A stretch of 63,942 nucleotides of DNA, counting the filler. It is 7 parts of 7 records of this genome, joined end to end, with 100 filler letters (N's around TTAATTAATTAA, not from the genome) between each part and the next. Parts side by side here need not be neighbours in the genome. Positions count along the whole stretch, not along the records: positions 31,779 to 52,029 come from SRR2962707_4576; 6 more parts are not named here. One strand, 5' to 3'. Positions within the stretch are counted from its first letter, which is position 1. Every line of letters starts with the position of its first letter. Shown piece by piece: positions 335-41,279 of the stretch. The notes beneath the pieces were generated by a model, which saw only the letters and a list, made by a program, of their open reading frames with translations, was not told where the DNA came from and did not search any database. A program made the translations under genes and the position numbers.

Positions 335-3300
335 ATGCTTCGAGGCAACCGCGTGCTTGGGATTCTTCGAGAGTCCAAGAACAAGTGGGAGCAGCGCGCC
401 CCACTCGCGCCCAAACATGTGGAGCGTCTTGTCAAGCAAGGCGTGAAAGTGATCGTGCAACCCTCCACTCGCCGCGCCTTTTACGACGCGGAGTATGCAC
501 GAGCTGGTGCCATCTTGCAGGACGACGTCAGCCCGGCATCGCTCGTGCTTGGCGTAAAGGAAGTCCCCATCAAAGACCTTCTCACAGAAAGAAGTTACAT
601 TTTTTTTTCGCACACCACGAAAGCGCAAGAGTACGTTTTTCTGAGATGCCGTTTACTGCATGCGAGTCCACACGTTGTTTTCTTTGCGAAACCGCTGTGC
701 GCATCACGTGGCGCCGTTCGTGTTTCATTCGTTGTTCTAGTTACAACATGCCGCTTCTGGACGCAGTCCTCGAGAAGAACATCCGCCTCTTTGACTACGA
801 AATGATTACTGAAACGGGCGACCGTCAAAGGTACGTCGTGTCAAGGGTTGATGCACTGCTCGAACGTGCATGCTCTGCATTTTGCCCCACACCTCTTGTT
901 GTTCGTTTTGTAACCGTTCCGTGTGCACAATTGCTGCCGTTGTGTTGCGCAGCCCGCGGCTGGTCGCGTTTGGTCGCTACGCTGGAATTGCCGGTATGAT
1001 TGACATTTGCCGTGGCCTCGGCGAGCGAATGCTGTCGCTTGGTCACACGAACACCTTCATGAAGGTTGCCTCCACATACATGTACGAGAGTCTCGCACAT
1101 GCGGAGGAGGCCGTCCGTCGAAGTGGCGTGGTCCTTGGTCAGAATGGAAGCCCTGCCGACCTTGGCCCACTTGTGTTCACCTTCACAGGGGATGGAAAAG
1201 TCAGCCGCGGTGCGCAGGTGCGCTTGAAGCTTGGCTCATGCTGTTGCATTCCCACTTGCGTACTTGTGACGGACACTTCTGTGGGGTGGTTGCTGAGGTT
1301 GCTTTGGGCTGTAGGAAATTTTTTCTCTGCTCCCGCATGAGTGGGTTTCCAAAGAAGACTTGCCGCATTTGTTGAAAGCCGGTGGCCGCAATGCAGATCT
1401 CAAGAAAGTTTACGGAGTTATCGCAACCCCCGAAGATTTCATCGTGCCACGAAACAACGACCATGTAAGTCTGCGCTGCGAGTAGGCAACTGGCAGATGC
1501 TACGAACTTCAAAGGCCACATCACCAATGCGTCGATTTGTCGATCACATTGTGTGCAGAGCGCGTTTGACAAGCAGCGGTACTACAAGGAGCCTCATGAG
1601 TTCAAGTCAATCTTTCACGAGACGCATCTCCCGTACACATCTGTCTTGATGAACTGCATGTTCTGGACGCAAGCGTAAGTCTCTAGCAGCCGCACTTTTG
1701 CACAACAGGGCCAGTCAGTTCACTCAGTCGCTGTGTTTACATACCTTGTTGTCGTATTAGCTACCCACGCATTGTGACGAACCAGCACCTGCAGGATCTC
1801 GACACTGAGCGGCGTCTTCGGCTGCTTGCAGTGGGGGAGATTACCTGCGACTACATGGGATCGGTGGAGTGCCTTGGAAAATTTTCGACAATCGAAAAAC
1901 CGTTTTATATGTTTGACCCTCAAACAGGACTCATGTGCGTCGCACCATGCTGTTGCTGACTGCGCCAGTGTGCTAAACATCCAGCACTGCCTGTTTTCAC
2001 TCCTCATTGCTCCTGCCAAAGGTCTGACGACTTGGAATCAAATGGCATTCTGATGCAAGGGGTTGACACCCTGCCAGCCGAGCTGCCGAAGGAGGCCACT
2101 GACCATTTTGGAGATCATCTGATGCCACTCCTGCCGAACTTGCTCGACTCGGACGGCAATTTGTCCTTGGAAGAGCAGCAAGCACAACTAAATCCTTCTT
2201 GGTGCGTATTGCGGTCCTATTCCGTGAATACGCTTTGTGTTGCATGGTGGCTGAATCCGGTAAGCCGCGACACTGAATTGAAGTCGCTGCACTCCATGTG
2301 CACCTGCTTCCAGGTTTGGCGCGATGATCACGTCGCAAGGGGAATTGACGCCGTCTTTCCGGTACATCTCAGATTTGCGAGCAAACAATGAGCGCATTGC
2401 TGCCCTGCACAACGAACGTGGCCACGTCGCTGCTGATGGAGAGCGAATCGCTGACGTTTTGGACCCGTCGGGGCACACGGAGCGCATTATGTTGCGCGGT
2501 CACTTGTTTGACAACGCCGTCATCAACAAGTTGTTGGACATTGTGGAGGGCGTAGAAAACTGCGACGTTCAGATGGTAGATTGGTCCCTCGGGACAAACA
2601 GGTCCGAGCACACGACTGCCGTGTTGGACGTCATTGGTGAAGGAGAAGACCCCGAGGAAACCACCTCGTTGGCATTGGTGCGTCTCTGGTGCACCTCTGG
2701 TTTTCTCGTGCGATTCCATGAACGCATGTCATTGACGGAGCCTGTCGAAACACGGTATATTTCAGGCACGCATTGAGGCGCTTGTGGAGGCAATGGCTGT
2801 CATATCGCCAATTGTGTTCCGCAATATTACTGGCCTTGGTCTTGAGTATCATAGCCAACAGGCTGCCGGCTCAGCTGACGCAGTTGCCTTCAATCCTCCA
2901 GTTTCCGGGTGCCAAGGACGGTGCGTTGTGGTGAGGTCGGCTCAAAAATACGACGAGACCATCGGGCATTGTGTGTGCGTGTTCCATACATGGACCTGAC
3001 TTTTTCATTTTCGGCCTTCGTGTGGATAGGAGTGTTCTCATCCTTGGGTCCGGAATGGTCGTTGGCCCTGCTTTGGACGTCATCTTTGACAGTGGAGCTA
3101 ATGTGACGCTCGCATCAAATGACCTCCCTGCTGCCGAGCAGCTTGCTGCCCCGCACTTGCCTGCCGCATTGGATCGCAACCAAGACTTGAAGTGCGTTGT
3201 CTCGCCTTCTCCAAATGTCAGTGTTCTAAAAGAAAACTGGGCTTCGGCAGCAACTCTAATGTTTTTTCTTATGTGCGTGCCTGGTCAGTACCGTCTTCTT

Positions 3301-5152
3301 GGATATGTCGAACGCCGACGCCCTCCCGCAGATGGTCCGCGACCATGATGTTACCATCAGTCTTCTCCCAGCCTCCATGCATGTCAAGGTTGCAGAACTC
3401 TGCATCGAGAACGGAAAGCATTTTGTCTCAGCCAGCTACGAGAGTGAAGCAATGCGGGCTCTCGACGAGCAGGCGCGAAATGCCGGGGTGACACTCCTTA
3501 ACGAGATCGGACTTGACCCAGGAATTGACCACATGAGCGCTATGCAAATTCTCGATGAGGTATGCAGCCGTTGCAGTCACGAAACAAACGACGCCGCGGC
3601 TTCATGTGCTTGCGCCTCCGGTATGGTTTTCCCAAAAGGGCTGATGTGGTCGCATTCATTGTGGTTGCTGACGTAGGCACGTGCGAATGGCGAGACCGTG
3701 ACGTCATTCTCCTCCATTTGCGGCGGCCTTCCAGCCCCAGACGCTGCGGGAAACCCGCTCGGCTACAAGTTCAGTTGGAATCCAGCCGGAGTCCTCCAGG
3801 CATCCCAGAACCCAGCCCGCTTCCTTCACCGTGGCAAGCTTCAACAAGTACGTTCTTACACTGGTGGTTTGCGTCAATCGCTATCGATCGCTTGTGCGTG
3901 AGCGCCACAGTGGAAAACCACAATTTCATCCAATCTTTTTGCGCCATCAGGTTCGGGGCGACGAGCTCATGTTGCACTGCCGACCAGTCAAAGTCGGCAG
4001 CTCGGCTCTGAGCCTTGAGCAGCTCCCCAATCGTGATTCCATGATTTATCGCGACATTTACGGCCTCGAAGACGCCCACACTGTGTATCGTGGAACCATT
4101 CGCTACAGGTGTGTTGAGCAGCTTTGCCTACGTCGACACGCAGTCGCTGCCTGCTTGTGATTCCACCACAATCTGATGTTCACTGTTGTGCTCGATGATG
4201 CACGATCGGGGTGGGGACGTACACAGTGGGTTTGCACCGGTTGTGCATTCGTTGTCCCGGATTGGTCTTTTTGATGTGGACCGTCCCTTGTCCGAAGTTC
4301 TGCCAAACTTCGAAGCGGGACGAGTGCCAACCTGGTCGGACCTCATGCTGTCACTTGTGCAGCCACTGGACGGGATGGGTAGGTCTGCCCCAGCTTGCTT
4401 GCCGGCAGTGGCGCTTTCGCGTCTAACTGATTTTGCTCGCGGCGTGTTGCAACAGGCATTCGTCAAACTCTGCGTGAACGGCTGGAGCCAGAGTTTTTGA
4501 GCGCCGACAGCGAGGCCATTGCGGCCACTTGCGTTGAGGCATTTGAATTCCTTGGGCTGTTCGGAACCGATGCCGCGAACGATTCACTTGCGGAGGCCAT
4601 TGAACGCGGTGCCACACCTCGCGATGCCCTGTGCGACCGATTGCAGGTACGTTTGCAGTGTCAACGTTTGAGCTGCATGGATGGGCTTGCGCGTGGAAGA
4701 TTGATCGGCCTTGATGGTGGTGGTGTTGTTGCTCGTGCAGGAAAAATTGAGCTACGAGGACGGAGAGAGTGACATGGTGCTTCTGCACCATGAATTCCGC
4801 ATTCGCTCGGCTGACGGGAAGCGCATGAGGAAAGTGACATCAACACTGCAAGCGTACGTTTCAAGTATCGTTGGTCATGCATCTAAAGTTTGCAAGTACG
4901 TAGTGCCTGGCAAGTTGGGACAAACCGTGAGGGCATATTGCGCGCAGGTACGGAGCACCGTATCCCGACGGGCCTTCTGCAATGGCAACGACGGTCGGTC
5001 TGCCCGTTGGTCTTGCCGCTTTGATGGTCCTCAACGGAACCATCCAGCAACGCGGTGCCGCACTCCCCATCACAAAGGAGATCTACGACCCCATTCTGGC
5101 GAAGCTTGCCGAGATGGGCGTCGTTTGCACCGAACGAGAATTTCCGCTGTAA
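335..5152 (+). CDS. AASS: Bifunctional lysine-ketoglutarate reductase / saccharopine dehydrogenase (alpha-aminoadipic semialdehyde synthase); multi-exon eukaryotic gene, about 16 short introns
   Basis: Collinear exon fragments: LGILRESKNKWEQRAPLAP, LGVKEV, FFSHTTKAQ, RLVAFGRYAGIAGMID, FTGDGKVSRGAQ, GVDTLPAELPKEATDHFG, LGSGMV, NEIGLDPGIDHMSA, SFSSICGGLPAP..NPLGYKFSWNP, GTIRY, DMVLLHHEF. GT..AG introns lie between them. ATG 335; stop TAA 5150-5152. Exact exon edges are approximate. Confidence 0.93.
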
Positions 5153-31778: not shown

Positions 31779-32756
31779 ATCCTGCGCCATTAGGCCAATT
31801 TCCGTCGGGCCGCCTGCCCTGTATCGATACAAATAGACCGGCAGACCATTATCCAATGTCCCGACACGCTCGATGTCGGTCTTGACCCGGCTGTCGGAGA
31901 ATTTCGTAATTGCCGCGCCACCCAAGGCACCGCCAAGACCGAACAGCCCGCCCTGCGTTGCCTGGTTACTAGCAAGCTGTTGATTGAAGGCGTTCTGCCG
32001 CGCCTGGAATGCCAACGCAGTTGGGCCTGTGATATCCGCTGGTGCAATGCCTGCTGTCGGGACAGGTGAGAATTGCGGCAGATTAACTCCCGAAGACGTT
32101 CCGAGAAGCGCCGACAGTTCATTGAGCGGCTGGTTGCGTTGTGTGAGGTTTTCCTGAATGGCCCTCTCCCGTGCAGCGCTCTCAAGGCCGAACAATCGGG
32201 ATTGCTCCGCACCGCCGGCGGCAACGGTGGCCAGCCTTGCATCGTTCTTTGCCTGGTTGAACTGCTCGAAGGCGTCGTTGAACCCCTCGCCTCCCTGGCT
32301 GAAGCCCTGATTGGCAAGCCGCGTGCGTAGCCGCTCTTCCTCGCGGTCGAACTGAGGCTGCAGGCGTTGAAAAAGAGAATCCTCTATCCGCTGGCGTGCC
32401 GCGTCGTCTGCCTCCGGCGGGGCGCCGAATTGCGAGAAGTCCAGTTCCGTCCCGAAGTTCGTTCCAATCCGCCCCAACTGATCGCTGCCGATGCCCAGCA
32501 GTTGGTTTGATATCTGGTTTTCCTGATCGAGCTTTGCCTGCTCGGCGGGGGAAAGTTCGGTGACACGGCGGAACCGCTCTATGCCGTCTTGCACTTCACC
32601 CGTCGATTCAAACCGCGACGTGCCGAACGGAGTAACCTCGTCTACTTGATTAAGCCGCGTCGTCGCGATGGCCGCCTCTTTGTTTGCGGCGCCCTGAGCA
32701 GCAGCGGTAGCGGCGGGATCGGGTGCCGCGGGTGCGCTCGGAGATTTCTTGCCCAT
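31779..32756 (-). CDS. Virion/ejection protein with C-terminal peptidase S74 chaperone domain (3' truncated)
   Basis: MGKKSPSAPAAPDP, Q/A-rich helical body, Gly-rich hydrophobic patch, FSDSRVKTDI..VG.L.NGL.VY.YRY..G..AQ. Confidence 0.8.
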
Positions 32757-38055: not shown

Positions 38056-38828
38056 TTAGGCTACGATCGCGCCCTGGAACTTCCGTCCCGAGACAGTCAT
38101 GTTGCCGGCCCATGCAATCAGTTTGACCAGCGCGTCCTGGTTGGTTGCGTACCGGTCAGGATTGAGCGGCACCATGTTCCGCTGCGAATGCGGGCGATAG
38201 TGCAGGAACTCAGTGTTCAGGAAGTACATGTGCGCGGCCGGCACCGAGCCGTTCAACCCGCCGTCGGGAACCACATCGGCATTCTTGAACTTCAGGTTTT
38301 CAAAGCCGGCGGATGCAAGCTTCTCATTCGTGAAGCGCTGATTTGCCTGCAGCGATTCCTGATAGAAGTTGAAATAGGTGTTGTCGGCCACGATGAGGTC
38401 CGGCTGATTCCGATTGCGCGAGCAATCGAGATGCAACTGGTTCATCGCCGTCTGGATGGTCGATGCCCCCGCCGTCAACGCATTGGCGGAAAAGTCGTAG
38501 ACTTGATTCTGCCAGAACGTATAGGTGGACGAATCGATACCGCCTACGGTGCCGGTGCCCGCATCCGATACGAGCAATTGAAGCCCGCCGACCTGCTTGC
38601 CGCCGGTGCCGGTGCCGTCCGAATAGATGCCGTCCGAAAGGTTGTTGACCATCTCGGACTCGCCCGCCTCGATGCGGGATGCCATCAGGTCGATAACCTG
38701 CTCGCGGCCGGCGTTCTGCAACATCTCCAGCCCGTTCATGCTGATAGCAACCGCCGCCTGCTTGATGTTGAACTCGGCGGACGTCAGCATGTCGTCTTGG
38801 CTGATATTGATGTTGTCGTAACCGCTGT
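38056..38828 (-). CDS. Major capsid protein, exon 2
   Basis: (Y)SGYDNINIS...GLEMLQNAG.EQVIDL...IYSDGTG.GGKQVGGL...AGFENLKF...MYFLNT...NQDA..KLIAWAGN. No credible start of its own; joins exon 1 in frame. Confidence 0.92.
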
Positions 38829-39849
38829 CACTTTTGTTATCGCGACGGCTCTTTATCCATCGCTTCTGCATGTCACCATGCAGGTCGGACTATATCTTCA
38901 CCCCCGCTTGAGGGTGCCGGGCGCTCGTGGGCGGGTTATCGTTTCCTCACCGCCTAGTCTCTACACCTTCCGCGCCCCTGGGGCCTCTCGGCCTTACGTG
39001 CGCGGCTTGGCTCGGGATTGACTGTATAAATGGAACTTTCCATGATACAGTGTTCCCCCGAATTCACCCAGTTTGTCTGGACTTAGCATGAAAACTTCCA
39101 ATGTGACTTGTCCACAATGTGGCAAAGACTTTTATCGGAAACCTTCGTATCTAAAAAAGGTCAACGTCGCTTTCTGTTCCGGTCGCTGTTACGGGGATGC
39201 CTTAAAGTCAGGCGCGTTCCCGCGAGAGATGCCAAAGCGCCCCAAAACGGGGCAAATGCTTTCCTGTGTCGTCTGTGGACAAGAGTTTTACCGCTCCGGC
39301 AGCTATATCGCCCGCGGCGTAAAGCAAACCTGCGGGGCTTCCGAGTGCAAAAGCGAGTATTTCTCCGGCGCCAACAATGCCTTCTGGGGCAAGAACCATT
39401 CCGACGAAACTAAGGCGAAGATATCTAAAGATCGCCGCGCAAAGCCCCGAAAGAAGCCGGGGCCGCCGAAGGGCTATAAACACACACCAGAAGCTCGCGC
39501 CAAGATATCGACCGCACTGCGCAGACGGTGGCTTGAAAGCCGAGACAAGATGCTCGAAGCCGTCCGTAAGGGCGGAGCCTCAAAACGGGGAATAAGTGAA
39601 GAGCCGCGTTACCGCAGCAATTTCACCCCCCTTCAAAGGCGCGAGTGGAAAGACAAGGAATGCGCATGGTGCGGAACAACCGAAGAGTTGACCCTAGACC
39701 ACATCATTCCCGTTATGGACGGCGGCTCGAAAAAGAGAACCAACGCCCAAACCTTGTGCATCTCCTGTAATAGGTGGAAACTTATTTACGTTGACCGGCC
39801 CCGCTACCTAGCGGGGCGTGCTGAGTCCTCAGTACCTATGCGGCATTCA
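38829..39849 (-). mobile_element. Group I self-splicing intron (1021 nt) in the major capsid gene
   Basis: P1 CAGUACU/GGUACUG with a U.G at the splice site; P2 GGACUCAGCA/UGCUAAGUCC; P3 CUGGGUG/CGCCCGG; P4 UUCGGG/CCCGAG; P5; P6a CCGCGC/GCGCGG; R GUGUAGAGACUA; P7.1; P8 CACCCUC/GGGGGUG; S AAGAUAUAGUCC; P9 with a GUGA loop; P9.1; P9.0; terminal G at 38829. Confidence 0.93.
39018..39046 (+). promoter_or_regulatory. Putative sigma70 promoter for the antisense endonuclease, embedded in intron P5
   Basis: TTGACT (39018-23), 17 nt, CATGAT (39041-46); about 40 nt upstream of ATG 39088. Confidence 0.6.
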
Positions 39850-39876
39850 AGTACTGGAAGTTCCCCGGGCCGCTGA
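39088..39876 (+). CDS. Intron-encoded HNH homing endonuclease with two zinc-finger modules and NUMOD3 motifs (antisense to the intron)
   Basis: CPQCGKDFY..FCSGRC, CVVCGQEFY..TCGASEC; NAFWGKNHSDETKAKIS and GYKHTPEARAKIS; CAWCG....LTLDHIIPVMDGG....NAQTLCISCN. Confidence 0.9.
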   Translation: MKTSNVTCPQCGKDFYRKPSYLKKVNVAFCSGRCYGDALKSGAFPREMPKRPKTGQMLSCVVCGQEFYRSGSYIARGVKQTCGASECKSEYFSGANNAFWGKNHSDETKAKISKDRRAKPRKKPGPPKGYKHTPEARAKISTALRRRWLESRDKMLEAVRKGGASKRGISEEPRYRSNFTPLQRREWKDKECAWCGTTEELTLDHIIPVMDGGSKKRTNAQTLCISCNRWKLIYVDRPRYLAGRAESSVPMRHSSTGSSPGR

Positions 39877-40048
39877 AGGTGATTTCCTCAACGATCGTCC
39901 GTCCGCCGGAGAAAGGACGCGAACGTCCGCGTTCCCGGAGCCGGAACAAAAGTGCGGTGTTGTTGGTCAGGTTGTCTGCCAACTGGCCACTACGATTCCG
40001 AAGAGTCGTGGTGACAATATCGTCAAAGTTTGAGTTAGGAGTGACCAT
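39850..40048 (-). CDS. Major capsid protein, exon 1
   Basis: MVTPNSNFDDIVTTTLRNRSGQLADNLTNNTALL.RL..RG..RPFSGGRTIVEE...GNFQY. 199 nt + 773 nt = 972 nt, i.e. 323 aa. Confidence 0.92.
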
Positions 40049-40061
40049 GTTAAGCCCTCGG

Positions 40062-41279
40062 TTAGATTACGGGAGTGCCCTCCGCTTCGCTGAAAGCGGC
40101 GGAAAGCTGGTCGCGTAAATCGTTTCCAACGGGCTGAGGTTCCGTCTTCGCAGCGGGCGTTCCCGATACGGACGAACCTGCCTTCTTGGCGGCATCTGCT
40201 TTTTCCTTCTGATCGCGCGCATTTTTTCGCTCGGCCGCCGCCTTGTTTGCGGCCTCGATTTTTGCGCGGACTTCCGGGTTGGCATGGGTTGCCATGTCAT
40301 ACGCGGTTTGGAGTGTCAGACTCTCGTCTGATTTCATAAGCGCGCCCATCAGCGGGCGGACTTGCTGAAAATATGGATGGGCAAGCTTGCCTTCATCCGT
40401 TGTCTCGGCAGCGAAAGCCGTGATTTGCTCGTCAATCTGGCTTGCGCTGGTTTGCTGTTCCTGCTGCTGGCGAACTTGAAAGTTCGTCGCAAGCTGGGTG
40501 TTTTGCTCCTTGAGCGCCTGAATCTCTGACTGCAGCCCAGCGGTCATTTTCTGGAACTGCTGGACCAACGGATCGTCGGCGAATTCTTCCGGGATGATCG
40601 GTTCTGCTGCTTGGGGAATAAGCGAGGCGATGTCTATCCCGCGCTGCTGCGCGAAGTACTGGATGAATTCGACGGGCTTTTCGGTTGCGAAGTCCGACAA
40701 GGCCAGCAATTGGCGTACTGCAGTAACCTCGTCCATGCCATTACGCAGCCATTCGGCGCGACGGGGTTCAATCGCCTCGTCAAAGGCTTTCAGGCGGCTG
40801 ACGGTCTTTTCCGCTTCCTGCTGGGCGGTGGTGAACTGCTCGGATTCTTCCAGAACAATCTTTTGTGCCTCAACCGGGAGAGCGCGGAACGCCTCTTGCT
40901 TCTCCAGCGTCCATTCAGGGCGCGGGTCCAGCGGTTCCGGTTCGGCCGGTGTCGCTTCTGTTGCCTCCGGCTCCGCCGCCGGCTCGCCTTCCGGGGCCGC
41001 CTCAACGGTTTCCTCGGGCTTGCCGTCCTTGGCAACGAATCGCCCCTTCTCGTCCCGCTCGCGGCCTTCCTTGCCTTCGGGCTCGGCCTCCTGGGTTTCG
41101 CTGGATTCTTCGCCTTGAACACTCTCCGGCTGCTCTGCCGGCGCTTCCGCTTCTGCTTCCGGGGCCTCTGCGGCCTCCATTGCTTCGCGGACGGAATCGG
41201 CCACGCTCTCCGGGCCGGGATCAGCCGCTACGACTTCCTCCAGCTCCCCAAGAGTAGGGCCTTCTTCTCGTTCTGCCAT
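40062..41279 (-). CDS. Capsid scaffolding protein
   Basis: Acidic E/A/P-rich N-terminus with RDEKGRF, coiled coil, AYDMA..ANPEVR; directly upstream of the capsid gene. Confidence 0.8.
   Translation of the reverse strand: MAEREEGPTLGELEEVVAADPGPESVADSVREAMEAAEAPEAEAEAPAEQPESVQGEESSETQEAEPEGKEGRERDEKGRFVAKDGKPEETVEAAPEGEPAAEPEATEATPAEPEPLDPRPEWTLEKQEAFRALPVEAQKIVLEESEQFTTAQQEAEKTVSRLKAFDEAIEPRRAEWLRNGMDEVTAVRQLLALSDFATEKPVEFIQYFAQQRGIDIASLIPQAAEPIIPEEFADDPLVQQFQKMTAGLQSEIQALKEQNTQLATNFQVRQQQEQQTSASQIDEQITAFAAETTDEGKLAHPYFQQVRPLMGALMKSDESLTLQTAYDMATHANPEVRAKIEAANKAAAERKNARDQKEKADAAKKAGSSVSGTPAAKTEPQPVGNDLRDQLSAAFSEAEGTPVI

Follow-up and report, generated by a model that had tools for sequence, protein, structure and literature searches.

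How can a homing endonuclease be made, and move the intron that carries it, when its gene lies backwards in that intron? The question is raised by a locus in the window, by which we mean the whole analysed stretch of 63,942 nucleotides (nt), composed of seven joined parts with filler between them; the locus lies in the part taken from SRR2962707_4576 (positions 31,779 to 52,029). Here, on the minus strand, the major head protein gene of a phage is interrupted by a group I intron, within which an open reading frame (ORF) for an HNH endonuclease lies on the plus strand (Table 1). The classic phage intron HNH endonuclease genes, those of I-HmuI, I-PfoP3I and others, are in the same sense as their introns. 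We consider it highly probable that the element is a mobile group I intron which spreads by homing, and whose antisense endonuclease is expressed from a promoter of its own.

The two minus-strand ORFs flanking the intron, of 70 amino acids (aa; 40048-39836) and 271 aa (38871-38056), are the halves of a single head gene. Residues 3-66 encoded by exon 1 match positions 4-67 of the PHROG 9953 (major head protein) profile with an E-value of 4e-15, and exon 2 matches positions 67-328 with an E-value of 2.2e-83, so that the two matches meet at profile position 67. Of 88 loci retrieved with the protein of exon 2, 85 allowed both exons to be located. In 81 of these homologues the gene is colinear with that of the window and runs on without interruption, and precisely one codon separates Tyr66 from the opening Ser of exon 2. 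Since these 81 intron-less homologues are colinear across the site, the splice junction is fixed, at NFQY-Y-SGYD in the protein and at ...CAG TAC T / AC AGC GGT... in the DNA (the slash marks the junction). This is the junction predicted in the first-pass annotation, an earlier reading of the same DNA from its letters alone. The joined exons restore the reading frame, with T/AC as a Tyr codon, and the lack of an intron at this site in 81 of the 85 homologues is a presence/absence polymorphism. Inside the window's intron the capsid sense frame is closed, as exon 1 reads to a stop after 4 codons, and no minus-strand ORF exceeds 91 aa.

On the minus strand, the Rfam family RF00028 matches 39133..38866 over its full model (1-253), with 85.7 bits against a gathering score of 50 (E-value 5e-22), and it is the sole family matched at gathering level in the 64-kb window. 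The P1 and P2 columns of this model fell inside the ORF and do not correspond to the true P1 and P2. Matches in the region to c-di-GMP-I (20.2 bits, threshold 35) and IMES-2 (16.4 bits, threshold 54.7) were below threshold and were taken as chance. The intron starts after U39850, which forms a U.G pair with G39836 at the 5' splice site, and P7 is made by GACUA (38959-38955) and UAGUC (38892-38888). When the whole 1,051 nt were folded without constraints, the minimum-free-energy structure recovered P1, P2 (GGACUCAGCA/UGCUAAGUCC) and P3-P9.1 altogether.

We scored the core structure derived from the window's own sequence on a MAFFT alignment of 26 non-identical family members, which was made without reference to structure. 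The core helices are paired in 85.2% of the cells, compared with 69.3% in column shuffles (none of 500 reached the observed value), and pairing drops to 37-39% when the partners are slid; 56 of the 88 core pairs vary on both sides. By helix, the fraction of paired cells is 95% for P3, 100% for P4, 91.5% for the proximal part of P5, 98.6% for P6, 100% for P7 (which is invariant), 100% for P8, 99.5% for P9 and 81.5% for P9.1. The assignment as a group I intron, with a conserved P3-P9 core, a U.G splice site and an omega G, is confirmed at the sequence level, and self-splicing is predicted.

P1 and P2 could not be scored on this alignment, since their columns are mostly gaps. P2 was assessed instead by the duplex energy between 50 nt at the intron 5' end and 18 nt over the endonuclease start codon and leader; this restricted test replaced an initial version with long segments, which was noisy owing to spurious pairing of P3-like G/C runs. 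Cognate pairs have a mean of -13.4 kcal/mol versus -10.1 kcal/mol for non-cognate pairs, and 0 of 20,000 permutations reach the observed mean, while the helix sequence itself varies by member (CCUUGCUGCC/GGCAGUAAGG, CAUCUAUAG/CUAUAGGUG, UUGGAGGC/GCCUCCA). As the cognate duplexes are stronger and differ in sequence, a P2-like helix closing round the endonuclease gene is a family feature. In the window, P2 encloses 730 nt, and both the sequence and the unconstrained fold bear out the pairing that the first-pass annotation had drawn, with strands as in Table 1 and about 730 nt between them. The start codon (ATG, 39088-39090) sits at the edge of the stem, as had been noted, its A being the last base of the P2 3' strand. 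A G+C-rich hairpin just inside P2 codes for RPRYLAGR on the plus strand and was not seen at the equivalent place in the aligned relatives.

P2 is built from the complements of the start and the end of the endonuclease gene, so that the endonuclease mRNA could form a mirror helix, which might mask its own start. On the mRNA strand, 39074-39088 pairs with 39816-39829 in a perfect 12-bp helix over the leader and AUG, with -20.0 kcal/mol compared with -13.2 kcal/mol for the ribozyme-strand P2 in the window. Across the 26 members, we found no strand preference of this helix (ribozyme -13.4 versus mRNA -12.4 kcal/mol, Wilcoxon p 0.13); it is more stable on the ribozyme strand in 12 members, on the mRNA strand in 10, and equal in 4.

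The start of the endonuclease ORF agrees with the N-termini of its relatives P0003 and P0018. The intron contains 762 of the 789 nt of the ORF. Beyond its start, the ORF crosses the P2 loop, the P2 5' strand and P1 with the guide sequence, and its last 27 nt overlap exon 1, a course that the first-pass annotation had not spelled out. Two CxxC..C..C modules, two NUMOD3-like motifs and a C-terminal HNH domain had been noted there in the 262-aa product, and the translation and Pfam searches agree with this; every element of that annotation is found at the position it gave. Pfam detects NUMOD3, and the HNH domain scores above its cut-offs, with 38.8 bits against 27.5 for HNH_5 (PF14279, 8.6e-10) and 34.2 bits against 21.4 for HNH (PF01844, 2.8e-8), and the protein also matches PHROG 1271 (HNH endonuclease) at 2e-18. 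The zinc modules are spaced CxxC-x18-C-x3/4-C, and residues 83-120 weakly match the I-TevI DNA-binding domain 1i3j (E-value 0.0044). In an alignment of 17 family sequences, C60, C63 and C87 are invariant, C82 is nearly so, and C192, C195, D204, H205, N219, C224, C227 and N228 of the HNH domain are invariant too; these last we take to be the catalytic and zinc-binding residues of a beta-beta-alpha-metal motif. The nearest solved sequence is the Geobacter nicking endonuclease Gme HNH (PDB 4h9d, E-value 2e-6). An AlphaFold model built on the same 17 sequences has a per-residue confidence (pLDDT) of 84-94 over the HNH domain and disorder in the last ~15 residues; its top Foldseek matches, 4h9d, Cas9 HNH domains and McrA, are HNH proteins throughout but weak (best E-value 9e-3, template modelling score to target 0.48).

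Table 1. Features of the intron, its antisense endonuclease gene and the interrupted head gene (positions count along the window)
Feature	Positions	Strand	Description
Group I intron	38829-39849	minus	1,021 nt; terminal G at 38829; boundaries from homologues, P1 and terminal G
P1	39830-39856	minus	exon CAGUACU (39856-39850) with internal guide GGUACUG (39836-39830), 7 bp
P2 5' strand GGACUCAGCA	39819-39828	minus	9 of 10 pairs with 39088-39079
P2 3' strand UGCUAAGUCC	39079-39088	minus	complement of endonuclease 5' leader and A of ATG
G+C-rich hairpin	39797-39817	minus	just inside P2; 8-bp stem, 4-nt loop (from sequence and fold)
Ribozyme core P3-P9.1	38842-39071	minus	from Rfam alignment and constrained fold
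Homing endonuclease gene	39088-39876	plus	262 aa, antisense to the intron
Zinc-ribbon-like modules, two, CxxC...C...C	39109-39348	plus	residues 8-34 and 60-87 (from translation)
NUMOD3, best stretch	39358-39426	plus	residues 91-113; Pfam PF07460, 2.8e-10, 2 stretches
HNH catalytic domain	39661-39780	plus	residues 192-231: CxxC, DH, N, CxxCN
Endonuclease tail overlapping exon 1	39850-39876	plus	last 9 codons and stop
Candidate sigma-70-like promoter TTGACT-17-CATGAT	39018-39046	plus	complement of J5/4 and P5
Major head protein exon 1	39850-40048	minus	66 codons and T of the split Tyr codon
Major head protein exon 2	38056-38828	minus	AC of the split Tyr codon, 256 codons, stop

The antisense layout is conserved throughout a family. 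A search of 5.8 billion proteins returned 63 relatives of the endonuclease, the closest 78% identical and most of them ~200 aa long with a single zinc module. The segment after the HNH motif, which is coded by the complement of the intron 5' end, is conserved as well (consensus YVDRPLxLAxLA in the 17-sequence alignment). As a single query in viral contigs, the endonuclease found 2 distant loci, and it was the alignment-based searches that revealed the family. With the endonuclease alignment we fetched 40 viral and 80 metagenomic loci, oriented them with the endonuclease on the plus strand, and found a tblastn match to it in 115. The ribozyme part of the window has blastn homologues in 52 of these 115 loci, and all 65 of the 65 matches are on the minus strand, opposite the endonuclease; those adjoining the endonuclease finish just upstream of its start. 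ORF-less cores of the intron family were found too; the first-pass annotation had suggested looking in viral metagenomes for the intron with and without the ORF. The 63 loci lacking a blastn ribozyme match are mostly distant matches to the HNH motif alone or contigs cut near the start, and two of them (L141 and L144) still align over the whole core. At Rfam gathering level, RF00028 was detected in 11 of the 20 loci tested, always on the minus strand; ten of these matches abut the endonuclease start, and the eleventh (L102) is a second, ORF-less intron. The E-value mode gave 6 more matches in 5 of 11 further loci, all again on the minus strand, and nothing in L141, L110, L111, L112, L097 and L147. 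The flanks of 20 inspected loci are exons of the same capsid family as in the window, with the form ...TTTLRNR..KLADN...GG..IV.EL.Y..N.T[FY]... / ...L[ND]I.PSDVF.AA.[FY].... Among 50,697 phage records, we found no close relative of the endonuclease, the best match being 34-39% identical across no more than 37% of the protein's length, and matches to the intron were limited to its short conserved core.

The family uses two insertion sites 9 nt apart, both of which split a Tyr codon as T/AY: site A, before Ser-Gly (the window, L098, L102, L106, L136, L138, L141, L142, L144, L149 and L169), and site B, after Tyr-Ser-Gly (L092, L094-L097, L103, L104, L132, L133, L147, L152 and L156). In L097, L132, L133, L147, L095, L152 and L103 the endonuclease stop (TAA or TGA) straddles the 5' splice site, being the complement of the last exon U and the first two intron bases; in the window, L092, L096, L104, L155 and L156 there is no such stop, and the ORF reads into the exon antisense. 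For members of the endonuclease family (P0006, P0027, P0033, P0040, P0043, P0060 and P0063), the sole informative name in public sources is "5-methylcytosine-specific restriction endonuclease McrA", a few being listed simply as "hypothetical protein", and the McrA name is misleading for an intron-borne homing enzyme.

In 15 pairwise comparisons of endonuclease genes, the proportion of nonsynonymous differences (pN) is 0.15-0.35, compared with 0.66-0.89 for synonymous ones (pS), which is near saturation, and the ratio of nonsynonymous to synonymous substitution rates (dN/dS) is 0.07-0.19 in the three pairs with unsaturated dS. Judged by these substitution patterns, the endonuclease is under purifying selection and is probably a working gene.

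Neither the capsid mRNA, which is read from the minus strand, nor the excised intron can serve as template for translating a plus-strand ORF, and this step of the first-pass reasoning holds. The further proposal, that mobility is uncoupled from late capsid transcription, stands as far as capsid translation is concerned, and expression of the endonuclease in its own right is supported indirectly by a conserved sigma-70-like site. The identifiable neighbouring genes (terminase, portal, head, virion protein, tail and amidase) are all on the minus strand, and therefore the endonuclease would need its own transcription start. A scan of 38300-40500 (2.2 kb) yielded a sole promoter-like site, the one in Table 1, which lies 41 nt upstream of the endonuclease ATG; its -35 is the complement of the P5 end and J5/4 (AGUCAA), and its -10 falls in the complement of the P5 hairpin. 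An equivalent site of the type TTGACT-17-TAnnnT passes our rule in 17 of the 26 endonuclease-bearing members, compared with 5% of dinucleotide shuffles. The spacer is 17 nt in 14 of these 17, the distance from site to ATG is 40-58 nt in the 15 members where it was determined, and the -10 hexamers vary (TATAGT, TATTAT, TATCAT, TACAAT and others) with A2 and T6 kept.

The same promoter rule was passed by none of the 7 ORF-less cores of the intron family that lie at other places in these capsid genes. In endonuclease-bearing members the median length of the P5 segment is 36 nt, versus 14 nt in ORF-less cores; lengths were taken by a regular expression, which gave no value for one member and cut P5 short by a premature anchor in the endonuclease-bearing L102, L104, L105 and L155 and in the ORF-less L104b, where P5 measures by eye 33-36 nt and ~15 nt, respectively. 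A purine run resembling a Shine-Dalgarno (SD) sequence lies 5-9 nt before the ATG in most members, as GGAGG in L098, L141, L144 and L165. Terminator-like sites were uninformative (5 versus 2.6 +/- 1.7 expected). So far as the comparison of sequences can tell, the ribozyme thus most likely contains a promoter for the endonuclease gene, the P5 extension doubling as this promoter.

These results suggest the following course of events. The minus-strand capsid pre-mRNA would fold into P1, the long-range P2 and the 3' core P3-P9.1, and the intron would remove itself to give a head protein of 323 aa. The plus strand of nearly all of the intron's 5' three-quarters is coding sequence for the modular HNH endonuclease, which would be made not from the capsid RNA but from a putative sigma-70-type promoter of its own, formed by the complement of J5/4 (-35) and of the extended P5 (-10). 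By analogy with phage intron HNH enzymes, the protein would then nick or cut the intron-less capsid alleles of co-infecting relatives near the site coding for ...FQYYSGY..., and repair of the cut would copy the intron into the intron-less allele.

Several observations weigh against this course of events. The -10 of the window (CATGAT, 4/6) and its SD sequence (GGA alone) are weak, and 9 of the 26 members fail the promoter rule, if only as near misses. The last ~15 residues of the ORF look like unconserved read-through, as residues 249-259 have a pLDDT below 50 and the tail is unconserved except in P0018. The fold search backs the HNH domain alone, and weakly at its best E-value. We infer the promoter role rather than assert it, because the members are related, so that their 17 sites are not independent events, and because part of the -35, the complement of CAA in J5/4, belongs to the ribozyme and occurs in the relatives without the ORF as well.

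Some of these points would suit an ORF that is a silent or decaying passenger, the unexpressed remnant of a free-standing endonuclease in an intron kept by vertical descent only: besides the weak -10 and SD in the window, the ORF no longer has the splice-site stop retained by many relatives and continues for 27 nt into the exon, and the relative P0018 is without the middle NUMOD3 segment. However, we regard such a passenger as quite improbable, since the ORF is intact with all of the family-invariant HNH and zinc residues in place, pN lies far under the saturated pS family-wide, and the promoter-like and SD-like elements are conserved. Somewhat less improbable, though still unlikely, is that the endonuclease is expressed by another route, from a phage-specific promoter, by read-through of an upstream plus-strand transcript, or as a leaderless transcript from the ATG. 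The nine members failing the sigma-70 rule leave room for it, and antisense promoters of other kinds are known in phages, such as those described for LUZ19 (PMC10914365). Against such a route, a -35 and -10 with a 17-nt spacing recur 40-58 nt before the ATG, at the same structural place in diverged members, and both the site and the P5 extension are absent from ORF-less relatives. That the orientation arose by accident in this contig alone, whether as an assembly inversion or a recent and meaningless insertion, has only the rarity of the layout among textbook phage introns in its favour, and it is scarcely credible given that the same layout occurs in 52 loci of independent collections with saturated synonymous divergence, and that P2 closes round the ORF in the window and its relatives alike.

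A mobile intron with an antisense endonuclease under its own promoter is thus the reading that we prefer, and a stronger version of it can be put forward tentatively, as possible though on balance doubtful, in which the ribozyme and the endonuclease gene are one co-adapted mobile element written on two strands. In this version, the same P5 bases would serve RNA structure and transcription initiation on opposite strands; P2 would consist of the complement of the endonuclease ribosome-binding site and start paired with the complement of its C-terminal codons, whereby the start might be masked; and, through convergent transcription, the endonuclease gene and the late capsid gene would each hold back the expression of the other.

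The first-pass annotation had called the arrangement possibly undescribed, which does not stand, since the capsid intron of mycobacteriophage LittleE and the nuclear ribosomal DNA introns encoding I-DirII and I-DsqI already carry antisense genes. In LittleE, as described by Pope et al. 2013 (PMC3706429), the capsid intron bears a homing endonuclease, gene 14, on the bottom strand, and the capsid mRNA is spliced according to reverse transcription PCR. In GenBank JF937101, the capsid coding sequence is joined on the plus strand and gene 14 lies inside on the minus strand, and at this locus (L091) we found a weak Rfam core of 30.7 bits at 2859-3062, directly 5' of gene 14 (3065-3598). As in our window, the major capsid gene of a phage contains a group I-type intron with an endonuclease gene on the opposite strand. 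However, LittleE gp14 is described as LAGLIDADG/I-CreI-like with an HNH-like C-terminus (PMC3706429), in contrast to the zinc modules, NUMOD3 and HNH domain here, and gene 14 is located 3' of its core, whereas the endonuclease gene of the window fills P2 at the 5' end. The window's intron shares the LittleE layout, yet it is no relative of the LittleE element. In its passages on the intron, the LittleE report deals with one phage with an intron ORF and gives no promoter analysis (PMC3706429).

In nuclear ribosomal DNA, the genes for the His-Cys box enzymes I-DirII (in Dir.S956-2) and I-DsqI (in Dsq.L2066) are likewise antisense to the ribozyme and the host gene and placed in a peripheral helix, and they are described as expressed from their own promoter on the other strand (PMC3073962, PMC9548176). 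Unlike the element studied here, they are eukaryotic, with an RNA polymerase II promoter, spliceosomal introns, polyadenylation, a His-Cys box and an rRNA host gene according to the same accounts, and the insertion in Dsq.L2066 is in P9.2 rather than P2. In its enzyme class, the window's endonuclease resembles I-HmuI of SPO1 and I-PfoP3I of Pf-WMP3, which are also intron-encoded HNH enzymes in phage protein-coding genes; I-PfoP3I is reported to nick one strand near its insertion site (PMC3428280), and the closest solved relative of the window's HNH domain, Gme HNH (4h9d), is a nicking enzyme too. The words "antisense", "opposite" and "orientation" have 0 occurrences in a 2014 review of bacterial group I introns (PMC3984707), and our literature search, which covered few subscription journals and no supplements, found no paper on this endonuclease/intron family or on a promoter inside P5. 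Three points are new with respect to LittleE: the endonuclease belongs to another family and its gene sits in P2, taking up the whole 5' part of the intron; the layout is conserved in a large uncultured intron family, which uses two sites 9 nt apart; and there is comparative evidence for a putative promoter embedded in P5.

Other insertions were observed in and around these capsid genes. Some genes have two or three cores of the intron family with the endonuclease in one alone (L102/L160, with cores at 1373-1559, 2736-2893 and 3688-3856; L157/L158; L142), and an intron of L157 that has no ORF seems to end ~20 nt upstream of site A. This short part of the capsid gene resembles a hot spot for introns. 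A second group I core was found on the minus strand of L162 (482-693, Rfam 42.2 bits), and the plus-strand ORF downstream of it, beginning MNIHYMAGIFDGEGY, is one which we take to be LAGLIDADG-like; the locus would then contain a further antisense endonuclease gene, belonging to another family. The four capsid homologues of the 85 that are not uninterrupted (L007, L009, L010 and L030) have a different insertion, ~21 codons further on than the window's site. In the closer capsid relatives L009 (2122-2980), L007 and L010 it is ~880 nt long, with a sense-strand ORF with LAGLIDADG-like motifs (L009:2239-2952), and in L030 it is ORF-less and ~250 nt long at the same place; at gathering level, Rfam found no family in L007, L009, L030, L022 and L006. 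Long stop-free minus-strand frames run from the endonuclease antisense via the ribozyme into exon 2 in L092 (1927-3600), L098 (2050-3609), L108 (1840-3633) and L152 (1900-3585), with none in the window, and may be a G+C-rich antisense artefact.

The finding opens no new category; to a layout published for one cultured phage, it adds a family that is well documented. In textbook phage introns the endonuclease gene is in the sense orientation and under the transcription of the host gene, whereas here a whole family is arranged backwards. Such loci are easily mis-annotated, the capsid gene being called as two fragments. If the promoter is indeed embedded in P5, the timing of the homing enzyme would be set independently of late capsid expression, and one stretch of DNA would be constrained by RNA structure, by a promoter and by an opposite-strand coding frame together. 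Should the ribozyme and the endonuclease gene moreover form one co-adapted two-strand element, a widespread and so far unannotated class of phage capsid introns would follow this design as a general rule.

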